From: a virus
Virus record (IMG/VR): IMGVR_UViG_3300013006_000023
Span: 1 to 64,000 of that record
DNA: 64,000 bases
Reading direction: 5' to 3' (one strand)
The position numbers were made by a program, and so were the translations under genes. Below are positions 1,022-64,000 of this stretch, piece after piece (the stretch's first letter is position 1; each line of letters begins with the position of its first letter). The notes below the pieces were generated by a model. It saw only the letters and a program-made list of their open reading frames with translations. It did no database searches and was not told where the DNA came from.

Positions 1022-1414
1022 TTAACCGTTAAGATTCCAAAGCCTGAGGCCTTCAGGGCTCACGCTATCAAAACCATTATCAGCTAATGTCTGTGTTCCA
1101 ACACCTGTTACACAAGTAAAGATTGAGCTTGATCTGTCTGCTCTTTGCAGTGCAAATTGCACACCATTATAGGCTCTGTCAACTCTAAAAGTTGTATTAA
1201 CACCATCTAGAGTGCCTGTAAGAATTGCATATGTGTTTGTCAAGGTACGGGTAGCAGCTTGAAACAACAATGATTGTGCGGTGCTGCCTAAAGTAACTAA
1301 GTTAACACCTAAAAAATTACCTGCAGCATTAAAAGCTGACTTTGATAGATTTAGAGATGTGGGGTTTGAAGCAGTTGGTTCTGCAACTTGAAATGAAAAT
1401 ACTATTGATGCCAT
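1022..1414 (-). CDS. putative virion structural/decoration protein
   Basis: 130 aa, rich in T/S/N/A/G, directly after the major capsid gene, with its own TAAATA late box 6 nt upstream. Confidence 0.5.
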   Translation of the reverse strand: MASIVFSFQVAEPTASNPTSLNLSKSAFNAAGNFLGVNLVTLGSTAQSLLFQAATRTLTNTYAILTGTLDGVNTTFRVDRAYNGVQFALQRADRSSSIFTCVTGVGTQTLADNGFDSVSPEGLRLWNLNG

Positions 1415-1420
1415 ATAAAT

Positions 1421-1426
1421 TATTTA
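1421..1426 (-). promoter_or_regulatory. T4-type late promoter box (TAAATA), representative of about 22 copies
   Basis: AATAAATA-atttat-ATG on the minus strand, identical to the element before the tail sheath gene (61593-61609). Confidence 0.75.
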
Positions 1427-1456
1427 TTCTAAATAGTCAATTTTTTTATAATAACC

Positions 1457-1489
1457 AAAAAAAAAGGGCCTCGCAAGAGGCCCTTTTTT
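1457..1489 (-). terminator. Rho-independent terminator after the major capsid gene (bidirectional shape)
   Basis: A9-GGGCCTC-GCAA-GAGGCCC-T6: 7-bp GC stem flanked by A/T tracts. Confidence 0.9.
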
Positions 1490-1547
1490 AAAGCTCCCGG
1501 GACGGACCGGGTGAAAAACTCTTTCTTTTGTTAATCCCAACTACTTC

Positions 1548-60959: not shown

Positions 60960-60962
60960 TAT

Positions 60963-61565
60963 ATGGCAAACCTAGTTCCATATTCACAAAGTATTTTTAA
61001 TAAAAGCAGAAAAGATAAATTTTTGCTCATATTGAACCTGCCCAAAGGATTAAAAGGCATTGATCGAAAAATTAATCGCAGTGATGCAACTATCAAAGAA
61101 GACTCTCTTCAATTTTCAGTCTATGGCAGCATTGTGCCCAACATTGAAATACCTGCAATACCCTTAAAGTATGCAGGCCAAACCTTACACACATCTTCTC
61201 TGACCAGACCGCCCTATCCACCTCTTACTATAAACTTTACCGTTGACAACAGGTTCAACAATTATTGGGTAATTTACAAGTGGCTAAACATATTGAATGA
61301 CAGTAAAACAGGCATATATGATGGTACCGATATCATGGCAAATAACAATAAATCCATTAATCTTGAATATGCATCTAACTTGTCAATCTTCTCTTTGGAT
61401 GAATATGACAAAAGAGTTATTGAGTTTGTATACACAAACGCGTTTCCAACCAGCTTAGCAGGCATTGATTACAACAATAGAGATGCAGGCGAAATAGAAA
61501 CATCAGCTACATTCAATTATTCACAATTTCATGCTACTTTGGTGGAGAGTGTAGATAGTTTGTAA
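60963..61565 (+). CDS. tail tube-fold protein (tail completion gp3-like)
   Basis: LTINFTVDNRFNNYWVIYKWL, FVYTNAFPTSL, ATFNY. Confidence 0.7.
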   Translation: MANLVPYSQSIFNKSRKDKFLLILNLPKGLKGIDRKINRSDATIKEDSLQFSVYGSIVPNIEIPAIPLKYAGQTLHTSSLTRPPYPPLTINFTVDNRFNNYWVIYKWLNILNDSKTGIYDGTDIMANNNKSINLEYASNLSIFSLDEYDKRVIEFVYTNAFPTSLAGIDYNNRDAGEIETSATFNYSQFHATLVESVDSL

Positions 61566-61606
61566 AAAACTAAAAAGTTTTATCCAAAAAACAATAAATA
61601 ATTTAT

Positions 61607-63904
61607 ATGGCACGCACAATTCAAAGTCCCGGTGTACAGATAACTGAGCAAGATTTTACAATAAGAAACGTTGGCGCACAACCCACAGTGGTATTTATTC
61701 CAGGGTTTGCAGCTAAAGGTCCTTCTTCAGAACCCATCAGTGTAACATCTGTTTCTGAGTTTGAGCAGATATACGGCCAACCCAGCAATGCTGCAGAGAG
61801 ATATTTCTACCACACAACAAAAGCTATATTACAGTCACCGGCAAGCGTAATTGTTTATAGATTACCATATGGTAATGGTGCAGGTTTTGATGTGAGTACA
61901 GAATATAGTGCTCTTGTTTATCCAGTGGTCTCATATGTGGATGGAGTATCTTCAACTGCAATTGATCGCAATGATTCAGTATATTTCTTTGGCAAGCCAA
62001 CCCATCTCAAACTCTCTCAACCTGAGTATCTTTCCATTTTAAGAGGAGATGGGTTCACATGGTCAAACAATACCAGTGGAGCAACCGCCTTCAGCAATGT
62101 TGCATCTCTCAAAGATGCGGGTCTTATACTTCTCAATAAAGCACAAACCACAATCAACACCCGTTATGAGGGAACATATGTGGGTATTATTGATAATACC
62201 AATCTCAATCCCGCCACCCCATATAATGACATAAATTCAGTTTTATCCATTAACAGCGATGCACAAGCAATAGGTGGTGGCGATTATGTAAATGTACCCT
62301 CAACTCGTTTGAACTTTGGTTTGAGCGCTGCTGCTGGCACTGGGGGCGGCAATAACTTAACAATTTCAGAAATTTTAGAAAACATACCCTCATATGACAT
62401 TTCATCAAGTAAATTTGATGATACAGTTTCAGTGGGTGTCTTCAAACTTGTACAATCATCCAGCTCACCTGATGTAATTGCTCTTGATTATATTCTCAAG
62501 GATGGCTTCACAGCTTCATTTGATTATAACCGTCAAATCGCTTCACAAAATGGTGGGCCTGCAATAAGCAATTTCCTTGAGCAAGTAGATAACAATTCTA
62601 CAAACATTATCTCAATAGTTAACCCATTCATTTCTAATAAAAACAAGCCCACATGGCTTGATTCTACCGGTTTACCAACAAAGAAAGTTCGTTTTCTCAG
62701 TCAAGGCATGTCGGAATATTTGAATGGCGAATCATCTCAGGACTACATCAACAGAATTGGCGCGCCAATTGGACAAGTTCGCGGGTTTCTAAATCTGTTA
62801 GGTGAGACCAACAATTTGGTTGCCCTGGGTGATTATGATAACCAGGATTTAACCACAAAGCTTATTGGCAATGTGCCAACCAAGCTTGATTATGCTTTTG
62901 ATAAAATCAACAATGTTGATCTTTATCCTGTCAATCTCACAACAGAAGCTGGCTTAGGCACAGTGTACCTCAACTCCTTTAACCCTGCAACTTCAGGATA
63001 CTTTGATGACACAGTCCCATATGATAGCGCAGTGCAGTCGCTAACAGCACAAACAGGACCAGCACCTTTTGCGACTTCAAGATACATGGAAGTTGCAACA
63101 TCATTTTTAAACTTTACTAATGTGCGCAAGGATCATCTGTTCATTGCTGATCCCATTACAAACATATTTGTGCAAGGTTCAAACATCAAAACCCTTGATC
63201 TTGCAACCAACTCATTCAATAACAACATCTACTGGCCATTAAAGAATCAATTTGCTGGTATTAATACAAGTTATGCATGCACATTCGCCAATTGCGCACG
63301 TGTTTCAGATGTTACAACAAATCAAGATGTGTGGGTTCCATTCTCTGGCTTTGCTGCAGCTGCAATGGCAAATACTGACTCTAACTTCCAACCATGGTTT
63401 GCACCAGCAGGATTTAAACGCGGTGTACTAACAGGTGTTGTTGATATTGCTCTCTATCCTAAGCAGAAACAACGCGACTTACTATATCGTATTAGCTTGA
63501 ACCCAGTAACCTTCTTCCCTGCAGAAGGATACGTTATATTTGGTCAAAAGACACTTCAGAAAATACCAAGTGCATTTGATAGAATTAATGTTCGTAGGTT
63601 GTTCTTGAGTCTGGAGACTGCAACTCGCGATACAGTAAAATACTTCGTATTCGAGCCTAATACACTCTTTACAAGAACACAAATATTAAATTCAATTTCA
63701 CCTATTTTTGATAACGCAAAAAATACACAAGGTGTTTACGATTATTTGATAATCTGCGACGAACGAAACAATACAACCAATGTTATTGATGACAATACAA
63801 TTGTAATTGATATCTATATTAAACCAGTACGAAGTGCAGAGTACATTCTTTGCAATTTTTACGCAACCAGAACAGGAACCAGCTTCCAAGAGATAGTTTC
63901 CTAA
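61607..63904 (+). CDS. gp18: contractile tail sheath protein (gp18)
   Basis: SPGVQITEQD, WFAPAGFKRG, GQKTL, SAFDRINVRRLF, FEPN, CDERNN, IYIKPVRSAEYI. Confidence 0.95.
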   Translation: MARTIQSPGVQITEQDFTIRNVGAQPTVVFIPGFAAKGPSSEPISVTSVSEFEQIYGQPSNAAERYFYHTTKAILQSPASVIVYRLPYGNGAGFDVSTEYSALVYPVVSYVDGVSSTAIDRNDSVYFFGKPTHLKLSQPEYLSILRGDGFTWSNNTSGATAFSNVASLKDAGLILLNKAQTTINTRYEGTYVGIIDNTNLNPATPYNDINSVLSINSDAQAIGGGDYVNVPSTRLNFGLSAAAGTGGGNNLTISEILENIPSYDISSSKFDDTVSVGVFKLVQSSSSPDVIALDYILKDGFTASFDYNRQIASQNGGPAISNFLEQVDNNSTNIISIVNPFISNKNKPTWLDSTGLPTKKVRFLSQGMSEYLNGESSQDYINRIGAPIGQVRGFLNLLGETNNLVALGDYDNQDLTTKLIGNVPTKLDYAFDKINNVDLYPVNLTTEAGLGTVYLNSFNPATSGYFDDTVPYDSAVQSLTAQTGPAPFATSRYMEVATSFLNFTNVRKDHLFIADPITNIFVQGSNIKTLDLATNSFNNNIYWPLKNQFAGINTSYACTFANCARVSDVTTNQDVWVPFSGFAAAAMANTDSNFQPWFAPAGFKRGVLTGVVDIALYPKQKQRDLLYRISLNPVTFFPAEGYVIFGQKTLQKIPSAFDRINVRRLFLSLETATRDTVKYFVFEPNTLFTRTQILNSISPIFDNAKNTQGVYDYLIICDERNNTTNVIDDNTIVIDIYIKPVRSAEYILCNFYATRTGTSFQEIVS

Positions 63905-63916
63905 TAAATATTTTAT

Positions 63917-64000
63917 ATGGCAGACGTAAATCAACTCATTACTGACTTCTACAGAATAGCAACATCACGCGAATTTGCACGTGATTTTAACTTCAGAGTG
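63917..64000 (+). CDS. tail tube protein (gp19-like), partial 5' end
   Basis: MADVNQLITDFYRIATSREFARDFNFRV, directly after the sheath gene; TAAATA 6 nt upstream. Confidence 0.65.
   Translation, partial: MADVNQLITDFYRIATSREFARDFNFRV

Follow-up and report, generated by a model that had tools for sequence, protein, structure and literature searches.

Promoter boxes set directly before start codons in a distant T4-like phage point to probable leaderless expression of late and early genes

We studied the placement of promoter boxes in the IMG/VR contig IMGVR_UViG_3300013006_000023 (107,651 bp), and in particular in its first 64 kb (positions 1 to 64,000, the window). Judged by its gene content, the source is a distant T4-like myophage. 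The main finding is that 51 of the 112 genes called on the contig (46%) carry a promoter box, either TAAATA or a sigma70-type promoter, at a nearly fixed distance of 5-7 nt from the start codon. As both boxes stand at this start-codon spacing and Shine-Dalgarno (SD) sites are at background level, leaderless mRNA made from both promoter classes is probably the best reading of the layout. TAAATA would then be read by host RNA polymerase carrying a phage gp55-like sigma factor, and TTGATT-N16-TATAAT would be a host sigma70-type promoter for the early and replication genes. Under both box types, transcription would begin with the A or G that opens the start codon, or 1-2 nt earlier. For the leading gene of almost every transcription unit (these ~46% of the genes), translation would proceed from an mRNA with little or no leader and an AUG or GUG at its 5' end. 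The downstream genes mostly overlap or abut the preceding stop codon, and SD pairing is rare.

To avoid circularity, genes were called blind to the motifs (longest open reading frame (ORF), codon-usage score and greedy non-overlap), which gave the 112 genes at a coding density of 97% in a genome of 36% GC. The promoter-fused starts comprise 31 with a TAAATA late box, one (that of the portal gene) with TAAGTA, 13 with a composite TTGnnn-N15-18-TAnnnT promoter and six with a good -10 box only. For the 31 longest-ORF starts with TAAATA at 5-7 nt the expectation from the 7226 other ATG/GTG triplets is 0.2 (P ~3e-58), and the spacer measures 5 nt at 18, 6 nt at nine and 7 nt at four of them, with nearly no boxes at other distances up to 45 nt. 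For the 13 composite promoters at this distance the expectation is 0.7 (P 3e-13). The original prediction had named 22 'late' and 13 'early' starts in the window, and each of these positions indeed holds a start codon with the box described 5-7 nt upstream on one strand, including the TAAGTA variant at 9222. Its view that late spacers are mostly 5 nt and early spacers mostly 6 nt holds for 13 of the late starts (seven have 6 nt and two have 7 nt) and for seven of the early ones (three have 5 nt and three have 7 nt). Not every listed position is the start of a gene, as the ATG at 58935 lies in frame inside the 305-aa ORF 58315-59232, and 23367, 28269, 52029 and 55425 are not the first start codons of their ORFs. 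The TTGnnn -35 element, described as usual, is lacking at 11685, 20704 and 33393, which have a -10 box and no TTG at 15-18 nt. Similar sites that had gone unlisted were found at 26049, 32685, 33367 and 38673, and some 17 more lie beyond the window.

Such a layout could in principle be a by-product of AT-rich intergenic DNA and of upstream TAA stop codons that create TAAATA near starts, and the upstream stop codon does supply the TAA of several boxes, for instance where the gap is 8 nt (16288, 65409, 82500 and 104652). Nevertheless, the enrichment, the shuffles and the T4 control refute this explanation, to which we attach virtually no probability. When these 60-nt upstream regions were shuffled with their dinucleotides preserved, TAAATA stood 5-7 nt before a mean of 2.3 starts (maximum 7) against the 31 observed, and the composite promoter before a mean of 1.7 (maximum 6) against the 13 observed. 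Control hexamers of the same composition precede 0-12 starts, and the overlapping ATAAAT precedes 20. Moreover, nine late boxes face away from a divergent neighbouring gene and have no upstream stop codon, and the spacing between box and ATG stays fixed despite a gap to the upstream gene that ranges from 4 to 434 nt. T4 has a similar GC content (35%) and shows no such peak; in the same pipeline TAAATA was never found 5-7 nt from a called start and instead gave a broad peak at 12-29 nt.

The layout was found conserved in a comparison of five genomes, consisting of the contig and the large uncultured relatives G001, G002, G003 and G005 (two of these four are complete). In each relative the distances peak sharply at 5 nt (in G003 at 4-6 nt), and the fused starts per genome number 44-63 for the late type and 17-45 for the sigma70 type. 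In the pooled clade, late boxes have a modal spacer of 5 nt and sigma70 boxes one of 6 nt; of the 117 pooled composite sites, 83 have the 6-nt start spacer and 85 a spacer of 16 nt between -35 and -10. The composite sites of the contig itself have TTGATT (five times), TTGAAA (two) or TTGATA (two) as -35 element, a spacer of 16 nt (ten) or 17 nt (three), and TATAAT as -10 box in seven cases. Box class was compared between orthologues with a protein identity of 26-93%, and for those that align from residue 1 a late box was matched by a late box in 17/19 cases in G001, 17/18 in G002, 5/8 in G005 and 8/14 in G003; a composite promoter was matched by a composite or -10-only promoter in 7/9, 6/8, 3/7 and 7/7 cases, respectively.

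The tail sheath gene offers a view beyond these genomes, as uncultured relatives in IMG/VR number in the hundreds (at least 518 in a sheath search). The arrangement TAAATA, 5-6 nt, ATG-GCA-CGN is kept in dozens of relatives. In more distant relatives the sheath protein likewise begins with Met-Ala-Arg, but its gene has a GGAGG leader; in two others, TAAATA is separated from the start by a 13-22 nt leader that includes AAGG, as in the T4 design. The same Met-Ala-Arg start under both designs indicates that the clade swapped a leadered for a fused layout at the same codon. A search with the conserved 23-mer from the 5' end of the sheath gene yielded 49 metagenome contigs, all of them DNA and none ending at the ATG, and is uninformative on RNA ends.

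Do the boxes act as promoters? A gp55-like late sigma factor, the presumed reader of TAAATA, is encoded at 35202-35789 (plus strand; phrog_234, E 6.6e-27), and the gp55 family was found in 5/5 clade genomes and in 0/14 control cellular genomes. Directly after the gp32 gene, at 50946-51677 (plus strand), a 243-aa protein is encoded for which a two-domain clamp fold was modelled (pLDDT 84; PCNA matches with TM 0.74 and E 1e-13). No Pfam or PHROG family matched this protein, the Pfam model of the gp45 C-terminal domain included; on the basis of the modelled fold it is probably the gp45 analogue. No family match to the gp33 co-activator was found among the ~80 proteins scanned of a contig that is ~51% complete.

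The type of box corresponds to gene function. TAAATA or TAAGTA heads the genes for the protease, the adaptor, the portal (TAAGTA), gp15 and the sheath and the downstream tail and baseplate block, and sigma70-type promoters head those for the polymerase, two helicases, the primase, gp32, the clamp, UvsX and UvsY and the clamp-loader operon; no recognisable replication gene was found with a TAAATA box. Furthermore, TAAATA is depleted within genes in both sense and antisense orientation (ratio 0.54-0.79, against 0.8-1.2 for control hexamers), and T4, in which TAAATA promoters are proven, shows the same intragenic depletion. Avoidance of the antisense TAAATA argues against a ribosome signal at the RNA level. 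Taken together, the gp55 homologue, the match between box class and function, the avoidance on both strands and the conservation between orthologues indicate that the boxes behave as promoters, and the sequence data support the assignment of TAAATA as a T4-type late-promoter core and of TTGATT-N16-TATAAT as an ordinary host sigma70-type promoter. Promoters of the Bacteroidetes type (TAnnTTTG) were rejected upon inspection by eye of the upstream regions. The two bases upstream of TAAATA are ~60% A and not TA, and the information content upstream of the core, which is itself fixed by the search design, is nil; full 8-bp copies of TATAAATA occur 12 times in the contig.

Late boxes with a spacer of 5 nt and an ATG start were found on the minus strand before the prohead protease gene (gp21-like; 5851-5864), which heads the protease-scaffold-capsid operon, the head-tail adaptor gene (gp13-like; 7407-7420), a glycosyltransferase operon (16286-16299), a 71-aa gene (21707-21720), the first gene of a four-gene overlapping operon (32103-32116) and a 107-aa gene (58242-58255), and on the plus strand before a 69-aa gene (53541-53554) and at the third in-frame start of an ORF, the use of which removes a clash with the opposite gene (28258-28271). 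The tail sheath stabiliser gene (gp15-like; 10040-10053, minus) has the same spacer and a GTG start, and the portal gene (gp20-like; 9220-9233, minus) has TAAGTA, 5 nt and ATG, with TAAATA in its G002 and G005 orthologues. Spacers of 6 nt before an ATG are seen at the tail sheath gene (gp18-like; 61595-61609, plus), at the next gene, in tube position (63905-63919, plus), at 52017-52031 (plus; 3 nt to the first ATG of an ATGATG pair), at a 130-aa gene just past the terminator of the capsid operon (1412-1426, minus) and at the 305-aa gene (59230-59244, minus), which is divergent from the terminase gene with 20 nt between the starts. Spacers of 7 nt, likewise before ATG, belong to the PhoH gene (24371-24386, plus) and a 302-aa gene (45674-45689, minus). 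The capsid operon ends at a strong intrinsic terminator (1460-1489, minus; 13-bp stem with 6 GC pairs and a T9 run), which lies directly past the capsid gene, with the next late box within 35 nt.

Sigma70-type promoters on the plus strand precede the genes for a glycosyltransferase (TTGATT-N17-TAAATT, 6 nt, ATG; 38638-38675), the gp43-like DNA polymerase (TTGTAA-N16-TATAAT, 7 nt, ATG; 39885-39922), UvsX (TTGTAT-N16-TATACT, 6 nt, ATG; 42920-42956), the gp41-like replicative helicase (TTGAAA-N16-TATAAT, 6 nt, ATG; 47074-47110), the gp32-like single-stranded DNA-binding protein (TTGATT-N16-TATTAT, 6 nt, ATG; 49600-49636), the putative gp45 analogue (TTGATT-N17-TATAAT, 5 nt, ATG; 50912-51677 with the gene) and the primase (TTGAAC-N16-TATAAT, 6 nt, GTG; 53929-53965), and one further start (TTGCTG-N17-TATAAT, 7 nt, ATG; 55789-55827). 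On the minus strand they precede a DNA helicase gene (TATAAT, 5 nt, GTG; 11683-11696), where the promoter consists of a -10 box only and is kept in G001, G002 and G005, a DUF366 gene followed by that for the clamp-loader small subunit (TTGATT-N16-TATAAT, 6 nt, ATG; 13787-13823), the queE gene at the second in-frame start of its ORF (TTGATT-N15-TATAAT, 6 nt, ATG; 23365-23400) and a GTG start (TTGATA-N16-TATACT, 6 nt; 32683-32719).

Several promoter pairs stand back to back, with 20-52 nt between the start codons. At 20702-20738, TATACT, 5 nt and ATG (20704, minus) are separated by 31 nt from the start that follows TAAATA and 6 nt (ATG at 20736, plus); at 27089-27141, TAAATA, 5 nt and ATG (27091, minus) lie 47 nt apart from TTGAAA-N16-TATAAT, 6 nt and ATG of a GTP cyclohydrolase I gene (27139, plus). 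A distance of 25 nt was found at 33365-33395 between TATACT, 5 nt and ATG (33367, minus) and TATTAT, 7 nt and ATG of the uvsY gene (33393, plus), and one of 34 nt at 55388-55427 between two late boxes, both with a 5-nt spacer, before ATG (55390, minus) and GTG (55425, plus).

A late box was also found inside a gene. The in-frame ATG within ORF 58315-59232 has TAAATA at 5 nt (58933-58946, minus), and the site is kept in the G001, G002, G003 and G005 orthologues as ATA-AAT-AAT-xxx-ATG (peptide I-N-N-x-M). This conservation suggests that a nested product of ~206 aa may be made from an internal late promoter of the 305-aa gene.

Where would transcription start? The -10 hexamer of sigma70 promoters covers -12 to -7, which means that the 6-nt spacer of the composite sites would set +1 on the start codon. 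In T4, the first T of TATAAATA lies at -13 (PMC2988020) and the last A thus at -6, by which a 5-nt spacer would likewise set +1 on the first base of the start codon. The earlier proposal that both geometries put +1 at or next to the start codon agrees with the published T4 promoter (PMC2988020) and with standard sigma70 promoters, and from these geometries we infer a start point at the start codon or 1-2 nt before it. The choice of start codons is in line with this: the promoter-fused starts of the pooled clade comprise 301 ATG, 58 GTG and 2 TTG, compared to 12% TTG at other starts under the same longest-ORF rule, and the near absence of TTG fits a purine at +1. A called start cannot in reality lie further upstream, because it is the first start after an in-frame stop.

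It could be argued that the +1 of the gp55 or the host holoenzyme is shifted relative to T4 or E. coli, with leaders of a few to ~12 nt, or with the first ATG missed and a downstream start used. The geometry is borrowed from T4, spacers range from 4 to 7 nt, and at a few genes, that for the terminase among them, the box lies 9-12 nt upstream, all of which would be compatible with short leaders. We nonetheless consider this quite unlikely, as with a leader of more than ~5 nt the start point would come to lie upstream of the box itself, orthologues, SD-led ones included, share their N-termini from residue 1 onward, which argues that the first ATG is used, and two unrelated holoenzymes share the 5-6 nt mode.

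Another important finding was the low level of SD sites, taken as a dG of -4.5 or lower against the anti-SD sequence. Such sites precede 3% of the genes with a late box and 0% of those with a composite promoter, compared to 13% of random positions, and even among non-fused genes the figure (19%) is barely higher than random. The original prediction of no SD use, unlike T4, agrees with this background-level scan, as in T4 the same pipeline found SD-like sites at 52% of starts and 11% of random positions. In the clade, SD 4-mers are still the most enriched words, but their enrichment is only 2-2.6-fold, compared to 6-14-fold in T4 and HTVC008M. Of the 112 genes, 37 overlap the upstream gene, and nine more start within 1-10 nt of it (together 41%). 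The overlaps had been described as mostly of the ATGA or TAATG kind; 14 of the 37 are of the ATGA type and five measure 1 nt, and the remainder are longer. SD-like sites were found at ~13 genes (12%), 11 of them inside overlaps, and ~15 genes (~13%) are unexplained. The proposal that the phage initiates 'almost entirely' by leaderless initiation and translational coupling thus goes too far: ~46% of the genes are fused and 41% overlap or lie within 10 nt, leaving the SD-like and the unexplained genes. Two genes also depart from it, namely the terminase gene, with a 12-nt gap after its TAAGTA box, and the major capsid gene, whose 76-nt leader (3045-3120, minus) contains a hairpin, the box GGTCGA(C) and, as an SD-like sequence, AAGGA. 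This capsid leader is conserved in G001, G002, G003 and G005 as a GC hairpin, GGTCGA(C) ~25-30 nt before the ATG, and an SD-like AAGGA or AGGAG, and the element could have a role in processing or regulation.

The scarcity of SD sites even at boxless genes means that some SD-independent internal initiation must exist, and this bears on the main rival explanation, in which the AU-rich box has a dual or mainly translational role: most protein would be made from read-through polycistronic RNAs, the box would be an SD-independent landing site for the ribosome (e.g. S1-dependent), and leaderless mRNA would be minor. Consecutive late genes that each have a box and no terminator between them would fit this, as does the weaker structure that genes of every class show in their first 40 nt, relative to internal ATG windows; the mRNA 5' folding energy did not separate promoter-fused from other genes. 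However, a landing site for ribosomes leaves the depletion of antisense TAAATA, the division of the two box types between functional groups of genes, the constant 16-nt distance of the -35 element and the near absence of TTG starts unexplained, and at the divergent pairs there is no upstream transcript on that strand. We regard such a role as improbable.

Some points weigh against leaderless expression from both promoter classes, which we still prefer. The geometry of this divergent gp55 is an assumption. At 13 of the 31 late sites the spacer is 6-7 nt and a T usually precedes the ATG, which leaves a doubt of 1-2 nt about the position of +1 there. In E. coli, leaderless mRNAs headed by GUG serve poorly as templates, and the host would have to tolerate them. 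The SD-like capsid leader implies that SD pairing probably works in the host, though it is seldom used. Terminators between consecutive late genes are few, and many cistrons must also be present in read-through polycistronic RNAs, where they would need another, SD-independent mode of initiation. Finally, the contig is only ~51% complete according to CheckV.

How does the layout compare with known systems? T4 late transcription depends on TATAAATA at -13 to -6, the gp55 sigma factor, the gp33 co-activator and the gp45 clamp (PMC2988020), and variant late boxes are known in other T4-like phages. Like T4, the phage has a gp55 homologue, a clamp-fold protein and a TAAATA core, and the box, which apparently has no -35 element, stands before virion genes on both strands and is depleted within genes. 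Unlike in T4, only the 6-bp core is fixed and the two upstream bases are A/T-biased instead of TA, and the T4 box stands 12-29 nt before the ATG with an SD between them, compared to 5-7 nt and no SD here. In the Thermus phage phiYS40 most middle and late transcripts are leaderless, with IF2 raised and IF3 lowered, and in phage Lalka27a the A or G of the start codon is the first base of most transcripts, as had been found earlier in YS40. The resemblance is that in those large phages most mapped transcripts, including the late ones made after a change of promoter specificity, start at the initiator codon. However, those phages are neither T4-like nor related to the present one, they infect a thermophile in which leaderless genes are common, the Lalka27a late box is TAGGGT, and their 5' ends have been mapped, while the layout described here was read from DNA. 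In Deinococcus, a -10 box that abuts the ORF drives leaderless mRNA (PMC12340547). The layout shares with the leaderless genes of Deinococcus-Thermus (PMC12340547) and actinobacteria a TAnnnT hexamer a few nucleotides ahead of AUG or GUG, the lack of an SD and an optional -35 element that makes the promoter stronger; unlike in those cellular genes, it is viral, involves two holoenzymes at once and covers about half of the genes of an AT-rich genome.

The cultured SAR11 phage HTVC008M (NC_020484.1), whose proteins are only 26-48% identical to those of the phage studied here, also encodes a gp55 homologue and shows a smaller peak, with 11 genes at 5 nt. Ten TAAATA-N5/6-ATG sites (6280, 7562, 11972, 16007 (minus), 18916 (minus), 18943, 19456, 24712, 31132 and 49760) coincide with GenBank CDS starts, mostly of virion genes (among them tape measure, DNA end protector, head closure, tube cap and baseplate wedge) and often in the form TAAATAGTAnnATG. 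In contrast to the present phage, the layout is limited in HTVC008M to ~14 of 175 genes, and SD sites are found in 54% of the rest. A comparison of TATAAT-N5-7-ATG with a reversed control in two Pelagibacter genomes had no power, as even the phage studied here was inseparable from its control. In the open-access literature we found no description of T4-type late promoters fused to start codons. At the DNA level, the combination of the T4 late-promoter system with a predicted leaderless mode of expression, extended to host-type promoters, is well supported.

T4 is the textbook model of late transcription, with leadered, SD-dependent late messages, and in a large uncultured clade, as well as in a cultured SAR11 phage, the same system appears to be fused to the start codon. 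If leaderless expression is indeed the outcome, it would follow that gene callers and start prediction based on ribosome-binding sites mis-handle these abundant aquatic phages, that promoter and translation start form a compact 14-nt module of interest to synthetic biology, and that leaderless initiation is mainstream in environmental phages of mesophiles, beyond the Thermus phages.

The layout also gives a concrete context for asking what the ribosomal protein bS21 of the phage does. This 69-aa protein is encoded at 48756-48965 (plus strand; PF01165, 38.2 bits, above the cut-off). In the region 48719-48965 (plus) a 13-codon mini-ORF, which follows a TAAGTA/TATATAAT stretch, overlaps the bS21 ATG by ATGA. 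The anti-SD region is supported by bS21, and the joint absence of bS21 and uS2 was reported to ease the exit of leaderless mRNA in E. coli; HTVC008M was reported to encode bS21 as well, and this bS21 enters E. coli ribosomes. The phage bS21 may be relevant to initiation. A bS21 was found in G001-G003, and the complete genome of G005 gave no match. We rejected bS21 as a necessary partner of the layout, since G005 has the layout without a bS21 match and the bS21-encoding HTVC008M is SD-rich. Homologues of IF1 or IF3 were not found in the five clade genomes, and the earlier idea that the phage could disable leadered initiation of the host is therefore unsupported. A broader scenario, that an abundant freshwater T4-like clade gave up SD-led initiation and that leaderless mRNAs and phage factors such as bS21 bias ribosomes off SD-led host messages, is in our opinion doubtful; it would amount to a way of taking over translation that is not known to have been described for T4-type phages.

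With respect to the phage itself, the recognised proteins include a gp43-type DNA polymerase, a gp41-like helicase, gp32, a primase, UvsX-, UvsY- and UvsW-like proteins and a gp46/47-like nuclease, and further the sheath, the portal, the major capsid protein, the large terminase, the prohead protease and gp13-, gp14- and gp15-like proteins. No close cultured phage was found, the polymerase and sheath having only ~30-38% identity to those of cyanophages, HTVC008M and T4. G001 carries a 'provirus' flag, yet it has no host-like flank by GC content or gene layout. As to the host, a scan of genome contigs with the phage bS21 gave no relative. The best cellular matches of a nucleotide-sugar epimerase/dehydratase (23375-24331, minus) among species-representative genomes are almost all from Pelagibacteraceae (42-46% identity), which gives a weak hint toward this family as host; both the pattern search and the abundance of SAR11 genomes in the collection bias this hint. 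The window also contains a full set of genes for the 7-deazaguanine precursor, encoding two GTP cyclohydrolases, QueC, QueD and QueE (101-1021, 22615-23367, 25128-25820, 27139-27798 and 44038-44784), besides several glycosyltransferases, and these gene assignments make it likely that the DNA is modified and/or the virions are glycosylated.

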